Shown here: positions 2,920-25,167 of the stretch, piece by piece
How the letters are laid out: the number at the start of each line of letters is the position of its first letter
Numbering within the stretch: the stretch's first letter is position 1
Source: Candidatus Aenigmatarchaeota archaeon
GTDB taxonomy: Archaea > Aenigmatarchaeota > Aenigmatarchaeia > CG10238-14 > SpSt-28
NCBI GenBank assembly: GCA_049976365.1
Contig: JBMFIJ010000002.1
Span: forward strand, 1-39,225
Direction: 5' to 3'
Length of the DNA stretch: 39,225 nt
Notes under the pieces: generated by a model
The model's database searches: none
What the model was told of the DNA's origin: nothing
What the model saw: only the letters and a program-made list of their open reading frames with translations
Made by a program: the position numbers and the translations under genes

Positions 2920-3348
2920 TTAACTTTTCGCTATTACTACTCCACCAATACCTTGAGCAGCAAATCTATGAATTAAATCAGCAACTGTATTCATTATTGT
3001 TTGAATACTCCCACTAGAAATTTTCAAGCTCTCTGGCTCTAAAACTTCTATAGCAGAAGGAGCAAAAAATATTGTTACATAAAGTAAAGTTTCTATATCC
3101 TTGGTTAAAATTTCTATTTCAACTGCTTTAGAAAATCCTTTTTCTACATTTGGTAAAGGCTTTTCAACTTCTAAAGTTTCTTTATAATCTTCTTTAACAA
3201 CAATACAATTTTCTAACTTCTTCAATTTCTCTATATGTTTTTTCAAACTTTCTTCAGCTGCTTCCTTACTAACTGCTAAAACATCAAACCAAGCTTTAGA
3301 AAGTATCCAACCTTTCTGAATTTTTTCTCTTACCTCTCTTTCTTCCAT
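2920..3348 (-). CDS. Hypothetical protein (142 aa), family not recognised
   Basis: Clean ORF with normal K/E/I-rich composition, 6 nt downstream of the radical-SAM-like gene on the same strand, so probably co-transcribed. I could not identify any motif. Confidence 0.6.
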   Translation of the reverse strand: MEEREVREKIQKGWILSKAWFDVLAVSKEAAEESLKKHIEKLKKLENCIVVKEDYKETLEVEKPLPNVEKGFSKAVEIEILTKDIETLLYVTIFFAPSAIEVLEPESLKISSGSIQTIMNTVADLIHRFAAQGIGGVVIAKS

Positions 3349-3354
3349 GAAAGT

Positions 3355-4329
3355 TCACTCCAAAACAAAGTTATGTTTTGCTCCACAAACTGGGCATCTA
3401 TCATTACTTAAATTAATTGATTTAACTTTATTTCCCATTCTCTCAACAAGCAAAGTCCCACAATTATGACAATATGTGCCTTCCATGCTAACGTCTCTTA
3501 TTCCATCAACATAAACATATCTTAAGCCTGCATCTTTACTGACTTTGAAATAATCCTTAAGTTTTGTTGAATTCAATTTAGAATTTCCTTTCAAAATGTG
3601 AAAAGGTGTTTCTGCACCTAAATTAGCAACAACCCAATCAGCAAGCTTCTTACAATCCTCTAAGCTACCATAATTGTTTTGTAAAATATTGCTAACCTCT
3701 ATAAAAACTCTGTACTTTGCAAAAAGCTTAACCATATCATAAACCTTTTCTACTTTTTTGATCAAAGTCTCTTTCTTATAATATTCTTCATTTCCAGAAG
3801 CAAAGAAATAGACTGCCAATGCATCAGTATATTTAGAGATTTTTTTAATTGGATCTTCCGCTATTAAACCTGAAGTTGCTAAAATTGTCTTTAAGTTTCT
3901 TCTCTTTGCTTCTCTGAAAACTTTAACAACATATTCATAATGGCCAACAAATTCTGAATGAGTAAAAACTATTGACTGAACATCATTTTGTTTAGCATAA
4001 TCAACAAGCTCTTCTGGCTTAAAAACTTTTTTTAAACTTTTAACCTCTGGCAAAATCTTAAAACTTTTTGGTGCTTTAAGACTAACTGCTAAAACTTTTG
4101 AATTTGGTAAAAAATTGAAGAAATTCCTTTCTTCTATTCTATTAACTTCTAAACCGTCAATAGCTCCATAATCTTTAATAATTAGCTCATCATTTTTGTT
4201 TTGTCTAACCTCACATAAACCAGTTTTGCCTTTAGGAATGCTGCAAGACAAAACACAAACTTTACATTTTATTCCTTTTTTATCTCTCTTCCAAAAAACA
4301 GTTTCCCTTTCCTCTTTGTATTCTACCAT
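3355..4329 (-). CDS. AmmeMemoRadiSam-system radical SAM enzyme homologue that lacks the CX3CX2C cluster motif
   Basis: 324 aa. The N-terminal motif is CKVCVLSCSIPKGKTGLCEVR. IEERNFFNFLPNSKVLAV matches the family's PIEKKPLFHF.PGS..LS segment. The C-terminal zinc ribbon is CHNCGTLLVERMG...CPVCG. Where CNFxCxxCQN is expected the protein reads SLKAPKSFKILPE, with no Cys. Confidence 0.75.
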   Translation of the reverse strand: MVEYKEERETVFWKRDKKGIKCKVCVLSCSIPKGKTGLCEVRQNKNDELIIKDYGAIDGLEVNRIEERNFFNFLPNSKVLAVSLKAPKSFKILPEVKSLKKVFKPEELVDYAKQNDVQSIVFTHSEFVGHYEYVVKVFREAKRRNLKTILATSGLIAEDPIKKISKYTDALAVYFFASGNEEYYKKETLIKKVEKVYDMVKLFAKYRVFIEVSNILQNNYGSLEDCKKLADWVVANLGAETPFHILKGNSKLNSTKLKDYFKVSKDAGLRYVYVDGIRDVSMEGTYCHNCGTLLVERMGNKVKSINLSNDRCPVCGAKHNFVLE

Positions 4330-4390
4330 AAAAATTATTGTTTTCTGTAGATATAACTTTTTCAGAAAGAAATAATTACTAGATACAAAA

Positions 4391-4463
4391 GCCCTGGTAG
4401 CTTAGCTGGTAAAGCGCCCGCCTCGTAAGCGGGAGAACGAGGGTTCAAATCCCTCCCAGGGCT
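4391..4463 (+). tRNA. tRNA-Thr (anticodon CGT)
   Basis: Cloverleaf folded by hand: acceptor GCCCTGG/CCAGGGC, D stem GCTT/AAGC, anticodon stem CCCGC/GCGGG with loop CTCGTAA, variable AGAAC, T arm GAGGG-TTCAAAT-CCCTC, discriminator T. No CCA is encoded. It is a GC-rich island in AT-rich DNA. Confidence 0.95.
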
Positions 4464-4598
4464 TTAATCTAGAAATCAAACTTTAAAATTTTTTGAAGAC
4501 ATAAGCAAAGGTTTGAAGAAAGTATTTAAATTAATGAAGAGAAATGGTATGAAAATAAAACTAACAATGTTTTAAATCTAACTTCGTAAATTTTCTTA

Positions 4599-5453
4599 AT
4601 GTTTTGGAAAAAGTTCAAGATAGCAAAACTATTACCAATACCTTTAGCTTTAATAATTTTCTCTTTAATTGTGATATCCAATCATTATTTAAAAACGGGC
4701 GAGTTTTTCATAAAGGATATTGATTTAAAAGGAGGAACATCAGTTACTCTTTTCTTTAATCAATCGATAAATACAGAAAATTTAGAAGAAATTTTAAGAC
4801 AACAATATGAGAATCTCTTCTTCTCTTACTCAAAAACATCAGAAGGAACAATAGCAGTTAATTTTGTCACAGACTCTATTGTTAATAGTAGCTCTTTAAT
4901 CTCTTTCTTGAATGAAAAAGGATTTTATCCTCAAGACCATTCAATTCAGTTTGTTGGCCCAGAATTAGGAAAATCTTTCTTTGTTCAAATAACAAATTTA
5001 CTGATTATTGCATATGTATTTCTCTTTCTACTCAATTTGATAATTTATAAAAAACCAGTAATTGCAGTAACAATAATTCTTTCTTCAATTGCAAACTTAA
5101 TTTGTGTTTTCGGAATAATGACTTTCTTTAACCAAAGATTTTCATTTGCTGGATTTTCTTCTCTTTTAATGCTCATTGCTTTTGGAATAGACGCAAATGT
5201 AATACTAGCAACTAAAATTCTCTCCGGAAAAATAGAAGAATTTTACGATCAATACAAGAAAGGTTTAATAACTGGAATAACAATAAATTCTGGCTTAATA
5301 ATTTCTATGTTAATAGTCCTTTTCCTTTCAAACTCAAACCTTTTAATAAACATAGCAGAAATACAAATAATTGGTTTTTTTGCTGATATCCTAAACACTT
5401 GGATTTTAAACGCCGCAATAATAGAGGTGATATTACTTGGAAAAAGACATTAG
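4599..5453 (+). CDS. secF: Protein-export membrane protein SecF
   Basis: 284 aa. An N-terminal TM is followed by the periplasmic DIDLKGGTSVTL motif, then a C-terminal block of multiple TM helices. It overlaps the downstream secD by 17 nt, the usual archaeal secF-secD order. Confidence 0.9.
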   Translation: MFWKKFKIAKLLPIPLALIIFSLIVISNHYLKTGEFFIKDIDLKGGTSVTLFFNQSINTENLEEILRQQYENLFFSYSKTSEGTIAVNFVTDSIVNSSSLISFLNEKGFYPQDHSIQFVGPELGKSFFVQITNLLIIAYVFLFLLNLIIYKKPVIAVTIILSSIANLICVFGIMTFFNQRFSFAGFSSLLMLIAFGIDANVILATKILSGKIEEFYDQYKKGLITGITINSGLIISMLIVLFLSNSNLLINIAEIQIIGFFADILNTWILNAAIIEVILLGKRH

Positions 5454-7221
5454 GTTAATAGCGTTAGCTTTTGTAGTTTTGATTTCTTTAATATCTTTAT
5501 CTAGAATATTCTTCCAAAAAAGTTGGGTAGAAGTTTCATTCATTAATGAAAGCGCTAAATGTGAAAATCTTCAAGTAGGAAGCAAAATTAGTGAAATAAA
5601 CAATATTCAAATTAAAAGTTTGGAAGATTTCAAAAGTGCTATAAGTAACATAAAAAAAGGAGAAAATGTTCTTATAATTGCTAATGGCCAAATAGCTTCA
5701 TGTATAGCAACAGATGATAAAAATCCTGGATTTAACGTTAAAGAAGGTAAAACTAAAGTTTTGAATTTTGGAATTGACATTGAAGGTGGAACAAGAGTAT
5801 TGTTAAAAGTTAAAGGTAATGCAACTGAAAAAGAAACTCAAGATATAGCAACTATTCTAACTGAAAGATTGAATGCTTATGGTTTAAGTGACATAAAAGT
5901 TTTACCAGTAAGCCAAAATTTAATTCAAATAGAAGCTGCTGGTCTAACAGAAGATGATATAAGAAACTTTTTGGTTAAGCAAGGTTACTTTGAAGGAAAA
6001 ATTATTGAAGATATTCCTTTGACTAATGGTAAAGGAAAGTTAATTTTCAATGGAACTTCAATTGAAATTAGCTTTTCAAACGAAACAATAGAAATATTAA
6101 ACAAAACTTACCCAATTAACGAAAGCTTTTACTTAGGAGATGTGAAATTTGAAGTTATTAATGCAACGGAAGACAATTTGATTTTGGCTGCAAACGTATT
6201 TACCGCTAAAGATATTGTTGAAATATTTACGGATGTTCAAAGAAATTATATTGTTCCTTATGCTGATGGTTATAGATTCGTCTTTACTGTTAAAATTAGT
6301 AAAGAAAGCGCAGAAAAATTTGCAGAAGTTACAAAGGGGCAACCAACTTATTATTCAGGTGGCCAGCTGTATATAAAACCAAAGCTTGTTTTATACTTAG
6401 ATAGAAAGCCAATAACTGAATTAAACATTGTTAGTAACATTGCTGGAGAAGCTTTAGAAACTCCTTCAATAGAAGGTTTTAGAAAAAGCTTAGATGAAGC
6501 AAGATTGGAAAAATTAAGACTTGAAAGTATTCTAAAATCTGGAAGCTTACCAGCTGAATTAAGTATTGAGAGAGTTGAAACAATAACACAAACTGAAGGA
6601 AAAAAACTTTTTGAATCAACTGTTTATATTTTGATAGCAAATTTCATTGCTGTTTTAGCTTTAGGTTTAGTAAGATACAAAAATATTAAAATTGGTTTAC
6701 TTATTCTCTTTGTTAGTATTTGTGAGTTAATTCTAATTTTTGGAGTCGCTTCTTCACAAATTGTAGCAGCAATTATAATTGTTCTCTCAATTATTTTAGC
6801 TATAGTTTACAAGGAAATTAATTCTCTAGTTAGAGCTTTAACAGTTTTTGTCTCAATTTTGGTTTCTGGTTTTGTTGTAATTGGAAAATGGACTATTGAT
6901 ATACCTACAATTGCTGGTTTAATTTCAATAATTGGTAATTCTGGGGAACTAATAACTTTAACTGATCAATTAATGCTTGAAAAGAAGAGAAGATTGGAAG
7001 AAAATATAGAAACTGGTATGGAAATTGTTTTTAATTCTTCCGCCTTACTAGTTTTTGCCATGCTTCCTTTAGCTTTCCTTGGTCTAGGAAGTCTAAAAGG
7101 TTTTGCAATAACAACAACTTTAGGAACTTTGATAGATCTATTTCTAACAAGACCTGCATACATGAAGCTTATAGAAAGTATTTTTAGAAAGAGGGTAGAG
7201 GAAGATTTTAAAAAACAATAA
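5437..7221 (+). CDS. secD: Protein-export membrane protein SecD, with an extra PDZ-like segment near the N-terminus
   Basis: 594 aa. It has an N-terminal TM, the FGIDIEGGTRVLLKV motif, a large periplasmic domain and a C-terminal six-TM-like block ending TRPAYMKLI. Residues ~40-95 (LQVGSKISEINNIQIKSLEDFKSAISNIKKGENVLIIANGQ) look PDZ-like. Confidence 0.9.
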   Translation: MEKDIRLIALAFVVLISLISLSRIFFQKSWVEVSFINESAKCENLQVGSKISEINNIQIKSLEDFKSAISNIKKGENVLIIANGQIASCIATDDKNPGFNVKEGKTKVLNFGIDIEGGTRVLLKVKGNATEKETQDIATILTERLNAYGLSDIKVLPVSQNLIQIEAAGLTEDDIRNFLVKQGYFEGKIIEDIPLTNGKGKLIFNGTSIEISFSNETIEILNKTYPINESFYLGDVKFEVINATEDNLILAANVFTAKDIVEIFTDVQRNYIVPYADGYRFVFTVKISKESAEKFAEVTKGQPTYYSGGQLYIKPKLVLYLDRKPITELNIVSNIAGEALETPSIEGFRKSLDEARLEKLRLESILKSGSLPAELSIERVETITQTEGKKLFESTVYILIANFIAVLALGLVRYKNIKIGLLILFVSICELILIFGVASSQIVAAIIIVLSIILAIVYKEINSLVRALTVFVSILVSGFVVIGKWTIDIPTIAGLISIIGNSGELITLTDQLMLEKKRRLEENIETGMEIVFNSSALLVFAMLPLAFLGLGSLKGFAITTTLGTLIDLFLTRPAYMKLIESIFRKRVEEDFKKQ

Positions 7222-7493: not shown

Positions 7494-8171
7494 ATGAAAA
7501 TTGTCGCTATTGGTTGTATACATAACGATATCGAAATACTTCCAAAAATTTTCGATAAGCTTTCTTCTTACAATCCAGATGTTCTAATTTCAGTTGGGGA
7601 TATAACAAATGCTACTTTCCCAAAAGGGTTTGAAGCAAAGGATGTAGGAAAAATTTTCCTGGAAGAAGCAAGAATTTATTTCAAAAACATATTAGTAGTA
7701 CCAGGAACTTGGGATAAGGATTTGATACCATTATTTGAAAAAGAAAACGTTTCAATTCATGGAAAGGGAAAAATTATTAAAAATATTGGTTTTTATGGTT
7801 TCGGTGGGGCTCAAACACCCTTTAATACTCCTTACGAACCTTCTGAAAAAGAAATAGAGGAAGGTTTAGAAATAGCATTCAATCAAGTTAAAGAAACAAA
7901 AATAAAGATTCAAGCAACACATGCTCCTCCTTATCAAACAACTTTAGATTTAGTTGGTATAAAACATGTTGGTTCTCAAGCAGTAAGAAATTCAATTGAA
8001 AAATTTAATCCAAACGTTGCAATATGCTCTCATATTCATGAAAGTGTTGGAAAAGATGTTATCAAAAATACAATTGTTCTGAATGTCGGTAAACTAACTG
8101 AAGGTTATTTTGGTTTAATTGAGATTGAAGATAATAAAATTAAGGCTGAAATTGAAAGAATTTTAGATTGA
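7494..8171 (+). CDS. Calcineurin-like metallophosphoesterase
   Basis: 225 aa. The ordered motifs are IGCIHND, VGDITN, PGTWD, ATHAPP, GS..V and CSHIHES, which is the classic metallophosphoesterase motif series. Confidence 0.85.
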   Translation: MKIVAIGCIHNDIEILPKIFDKLSSYNPDVLISVGDITNATFPKGFEAKDVGKIFLEEARIYFKNILVVPGTWDKDLIPLFEKENVSIHGKGKIIKNIGFYGFGGAQTPFNTPYEPSEKEIEEGLEIAFNQVKETKIKIQATHAPPYQTTLDLVGIKHVGSQAVRNSIEKFNPNVAICSHIHESVGKDVIKNTIVLNVGKLTEGYFGLIEIEDNKIKAEIERILD

Positions 8172-8239: not shown

Positions 8240-8611
8240 ATGAAAGATTTACCTTCTACAACTCTAGCTCTAAAAGAAAAAGAATCTATTAATTTGAGTT
8301 TAATAGCAAAATTTGATGTTATAACAGTTAAAATCTTACAAAAATTTTATGGAAAGGAAATAGATCCATTAACATCTGAAATAAACTCCTTTGACCTCAA
8401 AAAACTACATAAGCTTTTAGAGATAGATGGATTAAAGATAAATATTGAAACTTTAAGAAAAAGATTAGACAATTTGGTTTCACTTGGTTTTATAGAAAAA
8501 ATCTCTACATATCCAAGAATATATTCAGCAGTAAAGGATATTGAAAAAATTAAAAACATTCAATCAAAAATTTCTCTCCTCCGATCCTTTTTTGAAGGAG
8601 AAAAACAGTAA
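8240..8611 (+). CDS. Hypothetical protein with probable C-terminal winged-helix domain
   Basis: 123 aa. ETLRKRLDNLVSLGFIEKISTYPRIYS resembles a recognition helix plus wing. No specific family is recognised. Confidence 0.55.
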   Translation: MKDLPSTTLALKEKESINLSLIAKFDVITVKILQKFYGKEIDPLTSEINSFDLKKLHKLLEIDGLKINIETLRKRLDNLVSLGFIEKISTYPRIYSAVKDIEKIKNIQSKISLLRSFFEGEKQ

Positions 8612-9061
8612 TTTTATCTTTTAAACAACTTCAAAAATTCTAACTATCTCCAATCTCTTACTCAAACTCATTGATTATAGATAATCAAGAAAAAATTATG
8701 AACAGTTGTAAGATTTTTTAACTGACCATATTACGACAGATGAGAGAAAAAATTTAACTCAATTTGTTTAAACAAACTTTGATTTATTGTTTCAGAAAAA
8801 CTTTATCAATTCTAAATTTAAACTTTTTATTTAAAATCTAACTAAAGCTAAGATAAAAACATTTCGATATTATAAATAAAAATTTATGACCTTTTAAAAT
8901 TATTTCAAATTCTTTTAATAATTTTTTCCAACAATTTTTTATCAAACGTTTCTTTGATAAATAGAATTAAATTTTTCAAATGATAAAACTTCTTTAAACT
9001 TAAAATGGTCACTTTAACTATTTTCCTCCTCTTCATTTTTTCTTCTGAAAGCTCATTAATT

Positions 9062-9117
9062 TTTCCAATTTTTCATATTTTTTTCCAAATGTTCATAATT
9101 ATTTCCAAATCTTCATA
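9062..9117. repeat. Three phased direct repeats TTTCCAA(A)T-N-TTCATA, about 20 bp apart
   Basis: tttccaatttttcata (9062-9077), tttccaaatgttcata (9083-9098) and tttccaaatcttcata (9102-9117). The array is bracketed by two copies of tcttctgaaa (9041-9050 and 9121-9130). Confidence 0.8.
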
Positions 9118-9126
9118 AAATCTTCT

Positions 9127-9140
9127 GAAAGGTTTTAAAA
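9127..9140 (+). promoter_or_regulatory. Candidate BRE/TATA element for a (near-)leaderless transcript starting at the 9158 gene
   Basis: Purine-rich gaaagg is followed by ttttaaaa (9133-9140), ending 17 nt before ATG 9158. This matches archaeal TATA placement about 25 nt upstream of a TSS. In DNA this AT-rich it is weak evidence. Confidence 0.3.
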
Positions 9141-9157
9141 ACTGAGAAGTTTAATTA

Positions 9158-9391
9158 ATGACAATGGGAAGATTACCTTACAGAAGATTTTTTCATCCAA
9201 TAATTCTTTCAGTTTTAGATACTTCCATTCCTCTAAATGTTGAAGCAATAAGGAGAGCCGTTTCTATAAAATTGGGAAAAGATGTAAGTTGGAACACAGT
9301 TAAGAAATATTTAGACGAATTATTAGAAACCGGTAAAATAGAACAAGTTCAAGCTGGCAAAATTTTAATGTACAAGAAAAAAATTCAGTGA
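9158..9391 (+). CDS. Small winged-helix DNA-binding protein (77 aa)
   Basis: ILSVLDTSIPLNVEAIRRAVSIKLGKDVSWNTVKKYLDELLETGKIEQVQAGKILMY has the helix-turn-helix-plus-wing pattern. Its TGA stop (9389-9391) directly abuts ATG 9392 of the next gene. Confidence 0.65.
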   Translation: MTMGRLPYRRFFHPIILSVLDTSIPLNVEAIRRAVSIKLGKDVSWNTVKKYLDELLETGKIEQVQAGKILMYKKKIQ

Positions 9392-10297
9392 ATGGAGAAA
9401 ATAGAGATTGTTAAGAGATTTCTTGAATTGAAAGTTCAGATAACACCGAATGCTTTAGATAAAATTTTTTTAAATCAAGAGGTTATTCCTAAGCTGGAAG
9501 AACTTGTGAAAAAAGAAAACGTTTTTATCTTAGATGAAACACTTGTAGATAAAATTCTAACTCAAAGGAAAAGTAAAATCGAAATTTTTATTCCCAAACC
9601 AAAGGGGACATTTACAGTTGAAGATGTTCTAAATTATCTTAAAGGAAGGTTTGAAATTTTATCTTCAATACTTCAAAAAAACAATCAATTAAAAAATTTA
9701 GTTTCAATCTCTAGAGCAGAGAAGATAAAGGGTAGCGAAACTTTCAGTTTAATAGGCATGGTTAAAGATAAAACAACATATTCCATAACCCTAGAAGATT
9801 TTTCTGGCTCAACAAACATATTACTGGAAAGAGTAGAAACTGAAAAACTTTTTATTGATGATGTTATTGGTTTAGAAGTTTCAAAAGAAGAAGGAAAGTT
9901 AAAAGGTAAAAAAATTTACTTTCCTTCTCTCTCTTTTTTCAGAAAAATTTCTGGAAAGAAGATAAATGTAAAAGAAAATGGTTTAGTTGAAATTGATGGC
10001 GAGACAATAGAGCTTCCGAAAACCGAAATAGTCAAGATATTTTTTAACGATTCCTTTATCATATTGATAGATAAATCAATAATCGAGCCTTACCAGCTTA
10101 AAGATAAAACTATAATGGAAACTCTCATTTCACTTATAGAAAGAAGGCATCTTAATCCAAGCTTTTTTATTTCTAAAAAACTTTATGAAGAAGACCCATT
10201 TTTACTTAAAAACATCCCAGATGCCATAATAGTAAAGAATGCAAACACCTTTGAAAGGAAGATTTACAAAGGAATTGAGCTGATTACTCTTTTATAA
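9392..10297 (+). CDS. DP1 / polymerase B-subunit-like protein: N-terminal helical region and OB fold, but a truncated, motif-less phosphodiesterase remnant
   Basis: 301 aa. IVKRFLELKVQITPNALDKIF and ENVFILDETLVDKIL resemble the DP1 N-terminus. FSLIGMVKDKTTYSITLEDFSGSTNILLE...DDVIGLEVS resembles the DP1 OB fold (..iGmV......i.lED.tG.i). The C-terminal LIERRHLNPSF...DPFLLKNIPDAIIVKNAN resembles the DP1 end (RHLAP...PDi..GH.H). The GHxH and upstream Asp/His metal motifs are missing. Confidence 0.6.
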   Translation: MEKIEIVKRFLELKVQITPNALDKIFLNQEVIPKLEELVKKENVFILDETLVDKILTQRKSKIEIFIPKPKGTFTVEDVLNYLKGRFEILSSILQKNNQLKNLVSISRAEKIKGSETFSLIGMVKDKTTYSITLEDFSGSTNILLERVETEKLFIDDVIGLEVSKEEGKLKGKKIYFPSLSFFRKISGKKINVKENGLVEIDGETIELPKTEIVKIFFNDSFIILIDKSIIEPYQLKDKTIMETLISLIERRHLNPSFFISKKLYEEDPFLLKNIPDAIIVKNANTFERKIYKGIELITLL

Positions 10298-10373
10298 GAA
10301 ATACTCAATAATTGACTAGAAGAAATATATTACAGTGTATAAAAAATTTAAATCTTTACAAACATTTCAAAAA

Positions 10374-13085
10374 ATGCCAGAAATTTTTCAACTTATTGAT
10401 GCTGATTATGTTATGCTAAACAATCATCCTACAGTAAGGCTTTTTGGTAAGAATAAGGAAGGCAAAACAGTTTGTGCACTTTTTGATGGTTACTTTCCTT
10501 ATTTCTATTTCATTCCTTTGAAACCTAAGGAAGAAATAGAAGATACTTTAAAAAAAGAGTTTCAAGGGTTAATAAGAAAAGTAGATGAAGTTGAAGTATA
10601 CGAATCAATTGGTTTTAGGAGAAACAAAACTAAAATGCTTAAGGTTTTTCTTTCAGACCCTTCAAAAGTTCCAATAGTTAGAGAATTTTTAGTTAAAAAA
10701 AATTTGACATCAAAAACTTTTGAGGCTGACATACTTTTTAAATACAGGTTCTTGTGTGATTTCGACATGTATGGAATGAGATGGTATAAGATAGAGGGGA
10801 GAGAGATAAAAACAGATGTAATAAAAACAGAAAAAATATTTCAAATCGAAAAAATTGAAGAGGAAAAAATATTAGAAAATGCTCCTTTTAAAGTTCTTTC
10901 TCTTGATATAGAAACTACAGCTAAAGAGGGGAAACCAAACCCAGAAAAAGATAAAATAATAATGGTTAGCTTAGCCTTTTCTCCTTCTTTTAACGGAAAA
11001 GAAAACCTTGTTTTAGTAGCGAGACCAACTAAGGCAAATGGAAACACTTTAACATTTAAAGACGAAAAGGCGATGTTAGAGGAATTAAAAAATATTATTC
11101 TTTTATATGATCCAGATTTCATTGTTGGATATAACATCAATTCCTTTGACATTCCTTTCATTTATACTAGAATGAAAGAAAACAAGATATATCCAAGTTT
11201 AGGAAGAGCCGAAGATAAGCCTCTTTCTTCTAAAAAAATGGAAAGCTCTTACAGAAATCATATACTGGGAAGAGTTATAGTTGATGTCTATGAGATTGTT
11301 AAGGAGCTTTCAGAGAAAGGGTTTATTAGGCTAAAGAGATATGGATTAGATGACGTTAGTAAAACTCTATTAGGGGAAGGAAAAATTGATTTAAAACATG
11401 GAGATATTGGGAGAATTTGGGAGAAAAACAATGTTGATGAGATTCAAAAACTCATAGAATATTCAAGAAGAGACGCAATTTTAACACTAAGAATATTCCT
11501 AGAGAAAAGATTAATAGATAAATACATTGAGCTTTCAAGAGTTTGCGGCCTATTGTTGCAAGACGTTTTAGATGAAGGAGAAGCAGGCAAAATAGAAAGC
11601 TTGCTTTTAAGAGAATTTAATAAAAGGGGTTTTGTTTTACCAAATAAACCAAGTAAAGAAGAAATGTTGAGAAGAAAAGAAGAAAGAGAGACAAAAGGAT
11701 TTAAAGGAGCAATTGTTCTAGAACCGAAAGTAGGCTTATATACTACTCCAATTGTTTATTTAGATTTCAAATCTCTATATCCAACAATTTACATGAGCTT
11801 TAATATTTGTCCAACTACCCTTGTTTTAGATGATTCTGAAAGTCAAGAAAATTTGATTGTTTCTCCCTATGGTTCTAAATTCGTAAAACCGGAAATAAGA
11901 AGAGGAATTATACCACAAATTGTCGAGAATTTAATTAACGAGAGAGATAAGATAAAAAAAGAGATGAAGAAAGAGAAAGATGAAGAAAGAAAAATGTTGT
12001 TAGACTCTAAGCAAGAAGCTCTAAAAAGAATGGCTAACGCCTTTTACGGATATACTGGTTATATAAGGGGAAGAGTTTACATTTTGGATGTAGCTAATGC
12101 CATTACTAGTTATGGAAGATATTTCATTGAAACTACTAAAAAGCTTGTTGAAAGTAAGACAAAAGATTGGGAAGTGATTTATGGTGATACAGATTCAATA
12201 ATGGTTAAGATAAAAGCATCTTCAATTGAGGAAGCATTCAAGATTGGTAGGGAAATTGAGAAAGTTATAAACGACTATTATCAAGGAAAGGTTACAACAA
12301 AAATAGAAGCAATTTTTAAATCATTTTTAATAGTTTCTAAAAAGAGGTATGCTGGCATTGCGGTTGAAGAGAGTGAAGGCGGATATAAAGAAAAAATGGT
12401 GATGAAGGGAATAGAAACTGTTAGAAAAGATTGGTGTAATTTAACTGAAAAAGTTCTTTCAACAGTTTTAAACATTCTTTTGAAGGAAGGAAATACTCAA
12501 AAAGCTTTTGAGTATGTTAGAGAAGTTATAAAAAATATTGAGTCGGGAAATGTTGATATAGAGGATTTAACTATAACTAAAAGTTTATCAAGGAATTTGT
12601 CTGAATACAAAGGAGTTCAACCCCACGTAGAATTGGTTAAAAAATTGATGAAAAGATCTCCTGAAAAAGTTCCCGTTATCGGAGATAGAGTTAGTTATGT
12701 TATAGTGGCAGGTCCTGATCTTGTTTCAAAAAGAGCTGAAGACCCAGAATATGTAGTTCAAAATAAAATAAAAATTGATGCTAAATATTATATAGAAAGT
12801 CAAGTTTTACCTCCAATAGAGAGAATTTTTGAGGTCATAGGAATAAAAAGATCTCAACTTTTTGCTAATGGTAAACAATTATTGCTTTCTTCTTTAATCC
12901 AAGAAAAGCCAAAAGAAAATAAAAATATCAAGTATGAGACTTTTGAAAGTTTTGTTTGTTTGAATTGTGGGAGAATTTACTATTCAATTCCTCTCAGTGG
13001 AAAATGTTATGATTGTAAAGGGGAAATAGGCTTCTATTTAAATGGAGATAGGTTTAAGACAGTAGAAATAGAGAAAAGTATTTAA
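10374..13085 (+). CDS. polB: Family B DNA polymerase (intact exonuclease and polymerase motifs) with extra C-terminal C4 zinc ribbon
   Basis: Exo I LSLDIET, Exo II YNINSFDIPF, Exo III YSRRDA, Pol A DFKSLYPT, Pol B KQEALKRMANAFYGY, Pol C YGDTDS. The tail has CLNC-x15-CYDC. The ORF opens at GTG 10335, but ATG 10374 (MPEIFQLIDADY...) matches the usual PolB N-terminus. No intein is present. Confidence 0.95.
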   Translation: MPEIFQLIDADYVMLNNHPTVRLFGKNKEGKTVCALFDGYFPYFYFIPLKPKEEIEDTLKKEFQGLIRKVDEVEVYESIGFRRNKTKMLKVFLSDPSKVPIVREFLVKKNLTSKTFEADILFKYRFLCDFDMYGMRWYKIEGREIKTDVIKTEKIFQIEKIEEEKILENAPFKVLSLDIETTAKEGKPNPEKDKIIMVSLAFSPSFNGKENLVLVARPTKANGNTLTFKDEKAMLEELKNIILLYDPDFIVGYNINSFDIPFIYTRMKENKIYPSLGRAEDKPLSSKKMESSYRNHILGRVIVDVYEIVKELSEKGFIRLKRYGLDDVSKTLLGEGKIDLKHGDIGRIWEKNNVDEIQKLIEYSRRDAILTLRIFLEKRLIDKYIELSRVCGLLLQDVLDEGEAGKIESLLLREFNKRGFVLPNKPSKEEMLRRKEERETKGFKGAIVLEPKVGLYTTPIVYLDFKSLYPTIYMSFNICPTTLVLDDSESQENLIVSPYGSKFVKPEIRRGIIPQIVENLINERDKIKKEMKKEKDEERKMLLDSKQEALKRMANAFYGYTGYIRGRVYILDVANAITSYGRYFIETTKKLVESKTKDWEVIYGDTDSIMVKIKASSIEEAFKIGREIEKVINDYYQGKVTTKIEAIFKSFLIVSKKRYAGIAVEESEGGYKEKMVMKGIETVRKDWCNLTEKVLSTVLNILLKEGNTQKAFEYVREVIKNIESGNVDIEDLTITKSLSRNLSEYKGVQPHVELVKKLMKRSPEKVPVIGDRVSYVIVAGPDLVSKRAEDPEYVVQNKIKIDAKYYIESQVLPPIERIFEVIGIKRSQLFANGKQLLLSSLIQEKPKENKNIKYETFESFVCLNCGRIYYSIPLSGKCYDCKGEIGFYLNGDRFKTVEIEKSI

Positions 13086-15690: not shown

Positions 15691-16020
15691 ATGGACAAAG
15701 ATAAATTGTACAGATATGCTAATGAGTTAAGTTATCTTATCGCTTCTCCTCTTGCAAGAAAAATTGTAATAGTACTGAAAGAAGAGATAATGTTAACACC
15801 AACAGAAATAGGAAAAAGAATCAGTGTTTCCACTTCTAACGTTTCTACTAAGCTTATAGAGTTGAAGAGAAAAGGTCTAGTTAAATGTATAACTCCGGAA
15901 AGAAGAAAAATAAGGTTTTACACTTTAACAGTAAAAGCTGAAAAGGTTAGTACACTTCTTCCTGATGGAGAAGAAATAAAAAAAGAAATTAAAATTGATT
16001 ATGACAAAGGCGAAATATAA
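15691..16020 (+). CDS. ArsR/TrmB-like winged-helix transcriptional regulator
   Basis: 109 aa. LTPTEIGKRISVSTSNVSTKLIELKRKGLVKCITPERRKIRFYTLT shows the HTH-plus-wing pattern. Confidence 0.7.
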   Translation: MDKDKLYRYANELSYLIASPLARKIVIVLKEEIMLTPTEIGKRISVSTSNVSTKLIELKRKGLVKCITPERRKIRFYTLTVKAEKVSTLLPDGEEIKKEIKIDYDKGEI

Positions 16021-16330
16021 AGGATATAGAGTAGAAAGGAAGGTAAGAATTCTTTTGGAAAATAAAGGATGGAAAGTTATTAGGACAGCCGGAAGTTTAG
16101 GAGAAGCTGATTTAGTATGCTTTAAAAATGGAAAGGCAATTTTCTTACAAGTTAAATCTACAAGAAAGGAAAAGCTTTATTATCAAGGATATATGGAAAA
16201 AGAATTTGTTGGATTTCCTTTTTTTGTGGTTGTTGATTTTGGTTATGGTGATATAGAAGTATTTGAGCCTGCAGAAATTTTAGAAAAAGGAAAAGGGAAA
16301 AGCTTGGAAAGTTTTATAAAAGATTTTTAA
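15995..16330 (+). CDS. hjc: Hjc-like Holliday junction resolvase (PD-(D/E)xK fold) with Gln in place of the motif Glu
   Basis: 111 aa. KGYRVERKVRILLENKGWKVIRTAGSLGEADLVCFKNGKAIFLQVKSTRKEKLYY aligns by eye with Pyrococcus Hjc [54 protein letters not shown]. The start may instead be a nearby downstream Met. It overlaps the upstream gene by 26 nt. Confidence 0.75.
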   Translation: MIMTKAKYKGYRVERKVRILLENKGWKVIRTAGSLGEADLVCFKNGKAIFLQVKSTRKEKLYYQGYMEKEFVGFPFFVVVDFGYGDIEVFEPAEILEKGKGKSLESFIKDF

Positions 16331-18277: not shown

Positions 18278-18541
18278 ATGCCTGCAAAAAATGTTAGAGC
18301 AACTGAAATAATAGGAAGGGCAATAATTAGTTCTGAAACAGGAAAAAAGTTAGGAACAGTAGCTAATGTGGAATTTATAGCAGAAACAGGAGAGCTTTTG
18401 AATATAATCGTAGAAGATGCAACAAGAACCCTTTTGGACCTTAATGTAAAAACAGATTCTAAGGGAAGACCTTTAATACCATTTTCAGCAGTAAGGTCAA
18501 TAGGAGATTTTGTGGTAATTACAGAAAGCGAACTAATCTAG
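18278..18541 (+). CDS. PRC-barrel domain protein (87 aa)
   Basis: MPAKNVRATEIIGRAIISSETGKKLGTVANVEFIAETGELLNIIVED...PLIPFSAVRSIGDFVVI matches the small archaeal PRC-barrel pattern. ATG 18278 is preceded by aaaggtga. The track ORF start at 18176 would overlap thpR. Confidence 0.8.
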   Translation: MPAKNVRATEIIGRAIISSETGKKLGTVANVEFIAETGELLNIIVEDATRTLLDLNVKTDSKGRPLIPFSAVRSIGDFVVITESELI

Positions 18542-20706
18542 AATTCCTTCAAAAGAGTAGCTTGTTTTTCTTCTTGCTCTTTCTTACCTTCTAATTGGCT
18601 CTTTATTTTTATTGCAGTTTTTTCACCTATTATTCTTGCTAAGCTTTCTAAAGGTGCTTTTCTCAAATCTTCAAGAGTTTTAAAACCAGAATTATAGAGT
18701 TTTCTTGCTCTAACTCTTCCTATTCCCTCTAAAGAAACAAGCGGAATTAACTCTTCTTTTATTCCCTTTTCAATTCTAATTCTTAACTTTTTCAGAAATG
18801 TTAAAAAATCCTTCTTTCCTAAAAGAAGAGAAATTTCATGCAAAGAATATAAAAGCCAATCTGAAATTTGAATTCTTGAATATAGCTCTCCAGGAGTAAT
18901 AGAATATTTTTGAAGTATTTCCTCTTCAGTTCTCTCATTAATCCAATCTTTTAAAATTAATGCCATTTTTACACTTTTCTCAAATTCTTCATATTCATAA
19001 TCTTCAGTAGGTAAATCCAATAGAAAATCCTTTTTGTTAGATTCGATTATACTTTCTATTTCTGACAGTTCAGACATCTTTATTGAAGGTAGAGGTATCA
19101 TTTCTATGGAAGAGGAAATTAATTGCAAAACAGAAAGCTCTGTCAGTTTTTTATTTGATTTTAAACCATCAACAAAAATTTTTCCAGTTAGAGGATCTAA
19201 ATACAATTCTGATATTCTCTTTCCAAGTCTGGTTGCTTCAATTTTACTATTTTCAACTTCTATAAATCCCCACTCTTCTAAATTTTCAATAATTTCTTCT
19301 ATCTTTTCTTCAATTATATAAACATCATATCTGTAAGCAAAGAATGTTGATGAAAAAAATTCAAGCAGAGATTTTTTCTTTTTACAAAAGTCGCTAGCTA
19401 TTAAAGCTAGGGTGTGCATTCTTAAAGCAGGCTCAGAAGCTAATTTAGAGGTTATTGGTTCAGGTTCGCCAAGTATAAACTTTTCCTTAAGCTCCTCTGC
19501 TTCATCTTCATCTTTAGCTAATAGAATTGATTCCCCAAATTTATCAAATCTTGGTCTCCCCGCCCTTCCAATCATTTGATAATATTCTAAAGTTGGTATG
19601 TAGATTGATCCGTAAAGAGGATGATATCTTCTAGCTTCTCTTATTAAAACTCTAAAGGCTGGTAAGTCAACACCAGCCGCTAAAGTAGTTGTAGCTACCA
19701 AAACTTTAATTAACCCTTTTCTGAAATTTTCTTCTATAATTCTTCTTTGCTTTCCAACTAATCCAGAATGATGAAACGCAACTCCATTTTTAACACAATT
19801 AGCTAACTTTTTACATTGTTGTGTTGGAACCTCTAAAACATTTTCTATTTCTTCAGCTATTTTTTGAAGATAAGAGATATCACTTTTACCAATATTTTTG
19901 CCAACGATTTTTGAAAGCCTTTCAGCTAAAGCTTCTACACTCCTTCTTGTAGAACAAAAAATAAGAATTTGCTTATTTTTGGATATTGTATCTAAAACAA
20001 TTGCTTCTTCCAAATCAAAGCTTTCGTTTAGTTTAACTTCTTCTTTATCTAAAAATTCTATCTTAGAATCAAAAGCTACACCTTGATACAACTTAACAGG
20101 TCTAAAATTACTTTCTAACAATTCGGCATTTAACCAATCAGCCATTTCTTTAGCATTTTTAATAGTTGCAGACAATCCAATGATTTTCAGATTCTTTAAA
20201 CTTTTTCTCAATTTAGTAATCAATATTTCAAGTGTCGGTCCTCTAGAAGTTTCAGTTAATAAATGTATTTCATCTACAATTAATAATCCAACATCTCTAA
20301 TCCAATCCGCTTTGTGTCTAAGTAAAGAATCAGCCTTTTCATTAGTGCAAACAATTATGTCATAATTTTGTAACCAGGGATCGCTTGAATCAAAATCTGA
20401 AACAGAAATAGCTACTTTATATTCACTAAAAAATTCTTTGAATATTTCATATTTTTCGAATGCTAAAGCAACCAAAGGTGAAGTATACAAAACTTTTTTA
20501 CCTTCTTCTAAGGTTTTTATTATTGCTAGCATTGCCATTAAAGTTTTTCCAGAAGCAGTTGGCGTTGAAATTATACAGTTTTTTTCAAACAATCCTCTTT
20601 TTACAAATTCTTCTTGAGGTGGATAGAAGTTTTCAATTTTGAGTTTTTTTATTTTTTCAATCCATTTTTCTTCAAACCCAAAATTTTTTAACTCATCAAC
20701 TTTCAT
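18538..20706 (-). CDS. hel308: Hel308 / Ski2-like DNA helicase
   Basis: Walker A TPTASGKT, DEIH box, SAT, helicase C motifs (QMIGRAGR) and a C-terminal helix-hairpin-helix (GIGRVRARKLYNSGF). The ORF is open to 20745. The Met at 20706 (MKVDELKNFGF...) matches the usual Hel308 N-terminus and avoids overlap with the upstream part of kae1. Confidence 0.93.
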   Translation of the reverse strand: MKVDELKNFGFEEKWIEKIKKLKIENFYPPQEEFVKRGLFEKNCIISTPTASGKTLMAMLAIIKTLEEGKKVLYTSPLVALAFEKYEIFKEFFSEYKVAISVSDFDSSDPWLQNYDIIVCTNEKADSLLRHKADWIRDVGLLIVDEIHLLTETSRGPTLEILITKLRKSLKNLKIIGLSATIKNAKEMADWLNAELLESNFRPVKLYQGVAFDSKIEFLDKEEVKLNESFDLEEAIVLDTISKNKQILIFCSTRRSVEALAERLSKIVGKNIGKSDISYLQKIAEEIENVLEVPTQQCKKLANCVKNGVAFHHSGLVGKQRRIIEENFRKGLIKVLVATTTLAAGVDLPAFRVLIREARRYHPLYGSIYIPTLEYYQMIGRAGRPRFDKFGESILLAKDEDEAEELKEKFILGEPEPITSKLASEPALRMHTLALIASDFCKKKKSLLEFFSSTFFAYRYDVYIIEEKIEEIIENLEEWGFIEVENSKIEATRLGKRISELYLDPLTGKIFVDGLKSNKKLTELSVLQLISSSIEMIPLPSIKMSELSEIESIIESNKKDFLLDLPTEDYEYEEFEKSVKMALILKDWINERTEEEILQKYSITPGELYSRIQISDWLLYSLHEISLLLGKKDFLTFLKKLRIRIEKGIKEELIPLVSLEGIGRVRARKLYNSGFKTLEDLRKAPLESLARIIGEKTAIKIKSQLEGKKEQEEKQATLLKEF

Positions 20707-20759
20707 ATTTAATTTTTCTTTTGAATAAGAAAGTATGAGAGACAAAAAATTAATATCAA

Positions 20760-21986: not shown

Positions 21987-22919
21987 ATGAGTGTTGAAAA
22001 TCTGTTGCAAGAATTAGAGAAAAAGTCTGGGTTGAGAAGAGAAGAATTAATGAAAAGAATAGAGAAGAAAATTCTTGAGTTAGATAATTTGATAACAATT
22101 GAGGGAGCTATTTATTTAGTTGCTAGAGATCTTGGAATAGAATTGCCAGCAGAAAGGAGAAAGGTAAAAATTTCAAGTATATTGCCTGGAACAAGAAAAG
22201 TAAGTTTTACAGGAAGAGTCTTCAAAATTTCAAAAATTGTAGAGTTTGATGTTGGTGGAAGAAAAGGAAGAGTTGTAAATCTTTTTATTGGTGATGAAAC
22301 TGGTTATGTTAAAGTTCCTTTATGGAATGATCAAGTTGATTATTTGAATCAGAGAAAAATAAGCGTTGGCTCAATAGTACAAATAATAAATGGTTTTGCT
22401 AAAGAAGGAAATTATGGCGAAGTAGAAGTTTCTCTCGGAAATTTTGGTATAATTAGGGTTATCGATAAAGATGAAGGTTTACCGTCTGCTGAAGAACTTC
22501 TTCAGAAATTTTCTTCCTTCGAAAGAATAAAAATTAAAGATATTAGAGTTGGTAATTTTGAAATAGTTGGTTTTATTGTGAAAGTTTTGAAATCGAATTA
22601 TATTTATCAATCAAACGGAGAAAAAGCCTTGATTTTACCAACTATAATTGATGATGGTACAGGAGATATTAGAGTTGTATTTTTTAGAGAGTTAGCAGAA
22701 GAAGTTGCATCAACAACTGTTAATGAAATTGAAAAATTGGAAGAAGAAAAAAGAAAAAGATTTCTAGAAGAGAGAGTTTTAGGTAAGGAAGTTATTGTTC
22801 AAGGGAGAGTAAAAAAGAATGATATATATGATAGATTAGAAATGGTAGCAACTTATGTAAAGCCTTTTAACCCTACAGAAGAAAGTTATAAATTGGTGGA
22901 GGAGTTAGAAAATGCCTGA
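21987..22919 (+). CDS. rpa: Replication protein A-like ssDNA-binding protein (two OB folds, no zinc finger)
   Basis: 310 aa. An N-terminal helical domain ([18 protein letters not shown]) is followed by OB-fold signatures [21 protein letters not shown] and [17 protein letters not shown]. There are no Cys residues. The 3' end overlaps radA by 8 nt. Confidence 0.85.
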
Positions 22920-23868
22920 AAAAGAAATAAGGCTTGAAGATATTCCTGGAGTTGGACCAAAGATAGCTGAAAAGCTAAGAGAAGTTGGCTTTACAGATCC
23001 TATGGCAATTGCTGTTATTTCTCCAAGCGAATTGGCAGCTATTGCTGAGATAGGAGAGGGACAAGCAGCTAAAATTATTGCTAATGTGAGAGAGCTTTTA
23101 GATATTGGTTTAACAACTGCAGACAAAATACTTGAAAGAAAGCAAAAAGCTCTAAGAATAACAACTGGAAGCAAGGCCTTAGATGATTTGCTTGGTGGAG
23201 GAATAGAAACACAAGCAATTACAGAGACATATGGTCCTTTTGGTAGCGGTAAAACACAGCTAGCACACCAATTAGCAGTTAATGTTCAATTGCCTCCTGA
23301 AAAGAAAGGCTTAGGTAAAACCGTTGTTTATATAGATTGTGAAGGAACATTTAGCCCAACTAGAATAGTTTCTATGGCACAAGCAAAAGGTTTAGATCCG
23401 CAAAAAGCTCTTAAGAATGTTTTTGTTGCTAGAGCTTTTAACGCTGAACATCAAATGTTCATCGTTGAAAAATTGAGAGAACAAATAGCTGAAAAAAATA
23501 TTGGCTTAATTATAATTGATTCGATAACTTCTCATTTCAGAGCCGAATATATAGGAAGAGGAGAATTGGCAGAAAGACAGCAAAAATTAAATAAACATTT
23601 ACATTCATTGCAAAGATTAGCAGATGCGTTCAATTTAGCAGTTTATATAACCAATCAAGTTATGGCCGATCCTTCTGTTATTTTTGGTGATCCAACAAGG
23701 CCAGTTGGTGGTCATGTGTTAGGACATTTTTCTTCGTATAGAATTTATCTGAGGAAAAGTAGGGAAAATATAAGAGTAGCAAGACTTATAGATGCCCCAA
23801 ACTTACCAGAAAGGGAAGTAACTTTTAAAATAACAGAAGAAGGTATAAAAGACGTAGAGGAAAAATAA
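22912..23868 (+). CDS. radA: RadA recombinase
   Basis: 318 aa. It has an N-terminal HhH ([20 protein letters not shown]), Walker [10 protein letters not shown], Walker B LIIIDS and the typical RadA/Rad51 C-terminal part. Confidence 0.95.
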
Positions 23869-24709: not shown

Positions 24710-25167
24710 TGGCGAGAATGTACTCTAGAAAAAAAGGGAAGTCAAGAAGCCATAAACCCCCAATAAGAGTTGTGCCTAGATGGTTTGAGATGAAAAAAGA
24801 AGAAGTAGAAAAACTGGTTATAGACCTTGCTAAGAAAGGCTATTCTTCAGCGATGATAGGAACTATTTTGAGAGACCAATATGGTGTTCCTGATGTTAAA
24901 ACTATTGTCGGAAAATCTATAACTCAGATAATGAAGGAAAATAATCTTTATCCAGAATACCCAGAAGAATTGTTAAATCTTTTTAAAAAGGCTGTAAATT
25001 TACACGATCATTTGGTTAAAAATAAGAAAGATAAAACTTCTAAAAAAGGCATGGAAAACCTAATTTCCAAGATTAACAGACTAATAAAATATTACAAGAG
25101 AAGAAAAGTTTTACCAAAAGACTTTCAGTTCGATATAGAAAAGGCAAGACTAATTATACAAAAGTGA
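24709..25167 (+). CDS. rps15: Ribosomal protein uS15 (S15P/S13e)
   Basis: 152 aa. MARMYSRKKGKSRSHKP is the typical archaeal/eukaryotic uS15 N-terminus, with a conserved C-terminal helical domain. Confidence 0.93.
   Translation: MARMYSRKKGKSRSHKPPIRVVPRWFEMKKEEVEKLVIDLAKKGYSSAMIGTILRDQYGVPDVKTIVGKSITQIMKENNLYPEYPEELLNLFKKAVNLHDHLVKNKKDKTSKKGMENLISKINRLIKYYKRRKVLPKDFQFDIEKARLIIQK

Follow-up and report, generated by a model that had tools for sequence, protein, structure and literature searches.

We examined a stretch of 39,225 nucleotides (nt) from Candidatus Aenigmatarchaeota archaeon (GenBank assembly GCA_049976365.1, contig JBMFIJ010000002.1, positions 1 to 39,225 of the forward strand), here called the window, and in it an open reading frame (ORF) of 301 amino acids (aa) that we named mini-DP1. 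The ORF lies between a gene for a winged helix-turn-helix (wHTH) protein of 77 aa, whose end at position 9391 abuts the ATG start codon of mini-DP1 at 9392, and a complete gene for a B-family DNA polymerase (PolB). An earlier reading of the locus, made from the letters without database searches (the sequence-only reading), had noted this position of the ORF. It had proposed that mini-DP1 is a miniaturized, inactivated relative of DP1, the small subunit of archaeal DNA polymerase D (PolD), and of the B-subunits of eukaryotic polymerases, and that its pairing with PolB resembles the arrangement of eukaryotic replicative polymerases. The proposal is supported by the homology of the protein, the loss of its nuclease motifs, conserved gene adjacency, and a ribbon in PolB that resembles Zn-III of DP2, PolD's large subunit. 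The combination of a dead DP1 with a PolB is already known; it was described in 2020 (PMC7544198) and tested in 2025 (PMC12680538). Coordinates of all features are compiled in Table 1.

Homology of mini-DP1 and loss of its nuclease motifs

The NCBIfam equivalog model for DP1, NF003118, matches residues 1 to 182 of mini-DP1 (E = 4.6e-18), and a phmmer search against the PDB returned DP1 of P. abyssi (6hmf/5ihe/6t8h, E = 2.3e-8), aligned in two stretches. The first (residues 71 to 185) corresponds to the OB fold of P. abyssi DP1, and the second (residues 245 to 299) to the end of its phosphodiesterase (PDE) domain, where RHLAP is aligned with RHLNP and GHVH with KNAN. Invariant OB-fold columns of the mini-DP1 family include I121, G122, M123, E135, D136, D156, and D157. 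The AlphaFold2 model, calculated with 16 family members in the alignment, reached a mean predicted local distance difference test score of 88.9 and a predicted template modeling (TM) score of 0.74, with helices at residues 3 to 12, 19 to 27, 29 to 42, and 49 to 60. Foldseek searches with this model placed DP1 chains on top (6hmf_B, E = 1.2e-12, query TM score of 0.59); next came B-subunits from the eukaryotic polymerases Pol epsilon, delta, zeta, and alpha. Furthermore, a profile of the N-terminal region alone retrieved isolated DP1N structures (7e15_C, E = 5e-4; 2kxe, E = 1e-3), and the first unrelated match followed at E = 0.07. Entry 7E15 is cited in the paper on Thermococcus DP1N, Gins51C, and GAN (PMC9023282) and is very probably the structure of their ternary complex.

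Thus, the helical N-terminal region and the OB fold named in the sequence-only reading were recovered by sequence and structure searches alike. The profile comparison that it had suggested succeeded with NF003118, whereas a Pfam scan of the 301-aa protein gave no match. The Pfam families DNA_pol_E_B, Metallophos, and PolB_N are matched only by less reduced relatives of mini-DP1; of 40 family members, 6 match DNA_pol_E_B, and the Pfam link of mini-DP1 therefore runs via these relatives. No database name or accession is on record for the mini-DP1 family. An exhaustive profile search yielded 1023 relatives, and among the best 150 representative clusters (50% identity) all proteins have 242 to 412 aa and most match end to end, which indicates that the short DP1 is a large, established family.

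As the reference for the nuclease motifs we used a canonical DP1 of 509 aa from a Methanosarcinales Cdc6-DP1-DP2 locus (L013), which carries all five Mre11-like motifs (DVH, GD, GNHD, H, and GHIH). In the alignment to this protein, the region of motifs I to III (DxH, GD, and GNHD) is deleted from mini-DP1, motif IV has no histidine, and motif V reads KNAN, leaving none of the five motifs (DxH, GD, GNH(D/E), H, and GHxH). About 115 of the roughly 285 PDE residues remain, and the calcineurin-like PDE fold is therefore incomplete. This agrees with the earlier proposal that the C terminus is the end of a DP1 PDE domain whose metal-binding part is gone. The columns of the family alignment vary least at RHLxP, PD, and YKG, all located in the PDE remnant.

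Related contigs encode a graded series of PDE loss, with DP1 proteins of 398, 390, 353, 331, and 301 aa. In four proteins of 353 to 398 aa (P0047, P0071, P0102, and P0153), DxH, GD, H, and GHxH are still present and GNHD is the one motif missing, and nearly all nuclease motifs are gone in P0095, P0051, P0045, P0037, and the DP1 of locus L012. The sub-clade of mini-DP1 (300 to 302 aa), near the short end of the family size range, also lacks the last beta-strand, which relatives of 315 to 324 aa keep.

PolB and its C-terminal zinc ribbon

PolB has intact exonuclease (Exo I, LDIET; Exo II, NINSFDIPF; Exo III, YSRRDA) and polymerase motifs (Pol A, DFKSLYPT; Pol B, KRMANAFYG; Pol C, YGDTDS). Among solved structures human Pol delta comes closest (E = 1e-120), ranking above archaeal PolBs, and on this basis the protein is consistent with group B6-aenigma1 of the Delta-like clade. 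The ORF as called begins with GTG at 10335. Since the starts of orthologs correspond to the ATG at 10374 (MPEIFQLIDADY versus MKVSFQVLDVDY) and the 916-aa version is absent from the protein collection, the true start is probably this ATG, which would give a protein of ~903 aa.

The C-terminal zinc ribbon of PolB, to which the sequence-only reading had drawn attention, proved to be homologous to DP2 Zn-III, the DP1-docking module. While the single 79-residue PolB tail matched DP2 weakly (E ~ 0.17), a profile of 11 orthologous tails returned DP2 of T. kodakarensis and P. abyssi as the best PDB matches (E = 2.4e-7 and 5.9e-6, respectively), aligned on Zn-III (DP2 residues ~1119 to 1156), with the next unrelated zinc finger at E = 0.004. 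The protein ends 22 residues past the ribbon, without a helical bundle. All 14 tails examined stop 8 to 22 residues past the ribbon, showing that a DP2-type helical bundle is absent from them. PolB and 13 ortholog tails contain a single CxxC...CxxC ribbon and not the two modules plus bundle of the eukaryotic C-terminal domain (CTD). Between the thumb and the ribbon, and set apart from the latter by a linker, lies a candidate PCNA-binding motif. It conforms to G(K/R)Qxx(L/I)xx(hydrophobic), which is kept in 12 of 12 PolB orthologs compared and also in loci L016 and L017; by this pattern it is PCNA-interacting peptide (PIP)-box-like.

In the window no ORF reaches the size of DP2 (~1170 to 1320 aa, taken from the DP2 of L013 with 1173 aa and from PDB chains of 1270 to 1324 aa), the longest being the 916-aa PolB, and Pfam scans of selected window ORFs detected no DP2. 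The earlier remark that no DP2 gene is nearby therefore holds for the window.

Conservation of the DP1-PolB pair and its interpretation

The order wHTH, mini-DP1, PolB, proteasome beta, and aCPSF1 is kept throughout the window clade, down to 38% DP1 identity (L001 to L011); the orthologous loci L007 to L011, from GTDB representative genomes (38 to 47% identity, same synteny), also belong to Candidatus Aenigmatarchaeota archaeon. Because the whole neighborhood is syntenic in this clade, adjacency within it counts as one observation. Beyond the clade, a 398-aa DP1 stands between Cdc6 and PolB in L014, where PolB occupies the place of DP2 in the canonical Cdc6-DP1-DP2 unit of L013. L016 has the order wHTH, 390-aa DP1, and PolB, and L017 shows wHTH, 353-aa DP1, and PolB with 4-bp overlaps. 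In L012, a 331-aa DP1 is followed by a PolB with the tail VVCKNCSWTFRRPPLVGHCPSCSG. In total, DP1-PolB adjacency occurs in at least five sub-lineages with DP1 identities down to ~25 to 30%, so that the synteny in related genomes speaks for the pairing seen by the sequence-only reading. The PolB of L012 (positions 3193 to 7212) has 1339 aa, ~430 aa more than its orthologs, which suggests an intein or another insertion; a LAGLIDADG gene is found in L006 at a comparable position.

An inactive Aenigmarchaeota DP1 and a B6-aenigma1 PolB with a DP2-zfIII-like tail were reported by Kazlauskas et al. (2020, NAR; PMC7544198), who found DP2 missing in most Aenigmarchaeota genomes and co-occurrence of the inactive DP1 group 'Aenigma_GB_GCA_002789635-like' with CTD-bearing PolB; the evolutionary inference on eukaryotic B-subunits was drawn there as well. 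According to a 2025 study (Nat Ecol Evol; PMC12680538), Aenigmatarchaeota and Baldrarchaeia are the sole archaea without DP2 but with DP1, the Aenigmatarchaeota PolB tail is a 'degenerate', shorter DP2CTD, and Aenigmatarchaeota DP1 binds PolB-DP2CTD, as judged by AlphaFold3 and yeast two-hybrid assays. The Zn-III loop of PolD sits in a groove that the OB and PDE domains of DP1 leave between them, a Zn-III peptide of ~20 residues binds DP1 with nanomolar affinity, and the DP2 CTD helices touch loops of the DP1 PDE domain (PMC6355029).

Based on the sequence comparisons and on analogy to these systems, we consider mini-DP1 a noncatalytic, miniaturized descendant of DP1 that quite likely serves as the B-subunit of the adjacent PolB, which would be the replicative polymerase of this genome. 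In the proposed mechanism, which draws on the published work, the groove that separates the OB fold from the PDE remnant would receive the zinc ribbon of PolB, in the way that DP1 receives DP2 Zn-III. Less firmly, the DP1N domain might tether the complex to Gins51 of the Cdc45-MCM-GINS (CMG) helicase, as described for Thermococcus DP1N and yeast Dpb2N, and the PIP-like box might recruit PCNA. PolB would proofread with its own exonuclease, and this would account for the decay of the DP1 nuclease.

Several observations weigh against this assignment. The RR of the DP2 KxRRxP loop reads YY in PolB, so that the contact chemistry with the acidic DP1 groove must differ if binding persists; RR is kept in the PolB tails of L014 and L016, which have less reduced DP1s, and also in L012 with its motif-less 331-aa DP1, and the position reads AR in L017, SR in L015, and YY, YF, or YL in the window clade. 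Adjacency is not universal either. L015 shows the order Cdc6-DP1-OB-TctA with PolB 1.8 kb away on the opposite strand, and in L006, whose order begins in the same way, the short DP1 after Cdc6 is probably not adjacent to PolB. As to the helicase tether, L7 of Thermococcus DP1 aligns to a conserved leucine of mini-DP1, and L12, which is required for binding of Thermococcus DP1N to Gins51C (PMC9023282), aligns to Q16; this leaves the GINS tether unproven and makes it the weakest step of the mechanism. Finally, our negative result for DP2 covers the window, and the 2020 study reported DP2 to be absent from 'most', not all, Aenigmarchaeota and aligned some of their DP2 sequences in its Fig. S16 (PMC7544198).

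These last points would fit a PolD in which mini-DP1 is still the small subunit and the DP2 gene lies elsewhere in the genome, with the adjacency to PolB being incidental. We regard this as very unlikely: proofreading by PolD needs the DP1 nuclease, whose motifs are all lost here; the half of the PDE domain with the loops that touch the helices of the DP2 CTD is missing; Zn-III, the module by which DP2 docks, sits on PolB; DP1 and PolB genes are adjacent or overlap in five sub-lineages; and Aenigmatarchaeota are reported to lack DP2 (PMC12680538). Mini-DP1 could also act independently of PolB, e.g., as an origin- or Cdc6-associated OB-fold protein that binds single-stranded DNA or as a CMG-associated factor. 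A short DP1 directly follows Orc1/Cdc6 in L006, L014, and L015, in L006 and L015 the next gene is another OB-fold gene and not PolB, and DP1N and the OB fold are the best-conserved parts of mini-DP1. However, Cdc6-DP1 adjacency is the ancestral context of the PolD operon, as in L013, and so requires no new function. The invariant motifs of the PDE remnant suggest selection on the OB/PDE docking region, and DP1 binds PolB in yeast two-hybrid assays of Aenigmatarchaeota proteins (PMC12680538), which together make an independent role improbable, if less so than a hidden DP2. A functionless remnant of DP1 in the course of decay might be read from the progressive PDE loss along the series and from the missing last beta-strand in the window sub-clade, but this appears the least credible explanation of all. 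The ORF is intact at every locus examined, most of the 150 or more representative clusters (50% identity) match end to end, invariant residues persist to 25% identity, the fold is confidently predicted, and starts and stops are tightly coupled to the neighboring genes.

With mini-DP1 as the probable B-subunit of PolB, the locus matches the Aenigmarchaeota inactive-DP1/B6-aenigma1 system in phylum, dead DP1, single zfIII-like PolB tail, and Pol delta-like core, and differs from it in nothing essential; the PolB tails studied here also correspond to the 'degenerate', shorter DP2CTD of the 2025 paper. Homology to canonical PolD of P. abyssi (6HMF/6T8H) extends over the DP1N domain, the OB fold, and the PDE elements at the C terminus. 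The partner polymerase, here PolB, likewise carries the Zn-III docking module, and L014 has kept the ancestral order Cdc6-DP1-X. In contrast to canonical PolD, the partner is a B-family polymerase and not DP2, all five Mre11-like motifs and ~60% of the PDE domain are gone, the partner tail has no helical bundle, and YY replaces the RR of KxRRxP. Like eukaryotic polymerases, the pair combines a B-family catalytic subunit with an inactivated, DP1-derived B-subunit that has a helical N-domain and an OB fold. However, eukaryotic B-subunits have a complete, though inactive, PDE fold, while mini-DP1 has half of one, and eukaryotic CTDs consist of CysA, CysB, and helices, while PolB has one ribbon and no helices. 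In Baldrarchaeia, which have lost DP2 while keeping DP1, PolB3 is likewise fused to a DP2-derived C-terminal sequence and interacts with DP1 in yeast two-hybrid assays (PMC12680538). As compared from the publication, Baldrarchaeia have a full-length DP2CTD that resembles its counterparts in DP2 and in eukaryotes; the tail in Aenigmatarchaeota is shorter, and the structure predicted for it is different (PMC12680538).

The main texts of PMC7544198 and PMC12680538 do not mention that the genes of DP1 and PolB lie side by side, the order Cdc6-DP1-PolB, a PDE domain cut to ~40%, the series from 398 to 301 aa, or the coupled wHTH gene, and a further literature search on the dead-DP1/PolB system returned nothing else. 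What goes beyond these main texts is therefore the graded PDE loss, the Cdc6-DP1-PolB locus, the PolB tails without the DP2 helical bundle, and the conserved, coupled wHTH gene. A PolB tail without helices together with a DP1 without the region that contacts them may reflect a concerted reduction of both partners. Quite tentatively, extant Aenigmatarchaeota might preserve a stepwise record of the transition from PolD to a eukaryote-like PolB holoenzyme. PolB would have replaced DP2 beside DP1 in an origin-proximal Cdc6-DP1-DP2 operon and gained only the Zn-III ribbon, after which the DP1 nuclease domain and the contacts to the CTD helices would have decayed together. This would lead to the minimal interface of B-subunit and catalytic subunit observed here, made up of an OB fold, half of a PDE fold, and a single ribbon, with YY in place of RR in the docking loop, and the wHTH protein would be a dedicated regulator or a third replicase component.

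An archaeal PolB that holds an inactivated DP1 via a DP2-derived zinc module has the architecture that Pol alpha, delta, and epsilon are postulated to have had in their ancestor, a significance recognized in 2020 and tested experimentally in 2025. The increment over published work is modest: the locus offers a very small natural interface between B-subunit and catalytic subunit, which could define the minimal binding determinants, and the intermediate DP1 forms and gene orders could help to order the evolutionary steps.

The wHTH gene, the upstream region, and other neighboring genes

Table 1. Coordinates of mini-DP1, PolB, and neighboring features in the window
Feature	Position	Strand	Remarks
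mini-DP1	9392..10297	+	ATG start, 301 aa; catalytically dead; homologous to eukaryotic B-subunits and to the small subunit of PolD
DP1N-like four-helix N-terminal domain	9392..9577	+	Residues ~1-62; AlphaFold2 helices and N-terminal profile
OB fold	9719..9931	+	Residues ~110-180 (IGMVKDK...LEDFSG...DDVIG); HMMER alignment to P. abyssi DP1 OB domain
PDE-domain remnant	9947..10294	+	Residues ~186-301; C-terminal ~40% of calcineurin-like fold
RHLNPS in PDE remnant of mini-DP1	10145-10162	+	Kept
KNAN in place of GHxH in mini-DP1	10235-10246	+	Substituted motif V
PolB catalytic subunit, Pol delta-like	10335..13085	+	Complete; Exo I/II/III and Pol A/B/C motifs intact
PIP-box-like motif QLLLSSLI	12876..12899	+	PolB residues 848-855; between thumb and Zn ribbon
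C-terminal Zn ribbon CLNC-x12-CYDC	12957..13016	+	PolB residues 875-894; homologous to DP2 Zn-III
wHTH gene	9158..9391	+	75-77 aa in family; translationally coupled to mini-DP1
AT-rich intergenic region	8612..9157	.	546 nt, 22% GC; upstream of wHTH gene
123-aa protein	8240-8611	+	Weak TrmB-like wHTH signal; between phosphoesterase and wHTH-DP1-PolB unit
Calcineurin-like phosphoesterase, stand-alone	7494-8171	+	225 aa; Pfam Metallophos_3; 2-3 genes upstream of mini-DP1

The wHTH protein is probably a DNA-binding regulator. It is 69 to 91% identical across taxa in which mini-DP1 is 43 to 81% identical, and a wHTH gene directly 5' of DP1 is also present in L016 (5769 to 5984, 51% identity) and L017 (5750 to 6004, 38% identity, 4-bp overlap). 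Foldseek placed BlaI/MecI, Fur, RosR, HxlR, and PadR repressors on top, with E values of at least 1.7e-3. Two other explanations were tried. An origin as a remnant of the Cdc6 winged helix, Cdc6 being found in this position in sister clades, was rejected (hhalign probability of 0.65%), and a role as a third polymerase subunit, related to p66/Pol32-N or the RPA32 winged helix, was not supported, as a PDB profile search gave only generic HTH regulators (E of at least 0.02). Protein P0002 (L019, 467 to 1597), whose 376 aa correspond to 75 + 301 with a tryptophan at the junction, was considered as a natural wHTH-DP1 fusion and also rejected. Because the contig DNA reads cag-TGA-atg there, it represents an artifact of the genetic code or of gene calling, with TGA read as Trp. 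In the window, the wHTH and mini-DP1 ORFs are in the same frame, with a TGA alone between them.

The AT-rich region upstream of the wHTH gene may serve the wHTH-DP1-PolB unit as promoter/operator, and its membership in the system is uncertain. It contains five or six periodic repeats of ~20 nt (TTTCCAAAT.TTCATAA) at 9021 to 9140, just 5' of the wHTH gene; a copy in inverted orientation lies ~370 nt farther upstream at 8689 to 8711. L003, L004, L008, L009, and L011 carry a related motif at the corresponding positions. The repeats could be an operator array or have a layout like that of origin recognition boxes (ORB), and chance repeat matches are not negligible in DNA this rich in AT.

Farther upstream, a homolog of the 225-aa phosphoesterase is found near the DP1 gene in L001 to L005, L008 to L011, and L015 to L017; its sole solved relative is aq_1956 (2yvt). 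The protein was considered as a split-off PDE domain of DP1 and rejected as such, since the best BLAST match had an E value of 0.046 (database of six sequences) and phmmer gave no match. The 123-aa protein is kept in related loci, among them L016 and L017, with identities of 40% and 38%, respectively.

No Orc1/Cdc6 was detected among the window ORFs scanned. The window is rich in genes for replication and repair (15995 to 16330; 18538 to 20745, minus strand; 21987 to 22919; 22912 to 23868; and 25164 to 26522). By synteny with L001 it contains an Hjc resolvase and a Hel308-like helicase, and Pfam scans identified an OB-fold (RPA-like) protein, RadA/Rad51, and a protein with DHH, DHH-CID, and DHHA1 domains, an architecture typical of GAN/RecJ/Cdc45-like factors.

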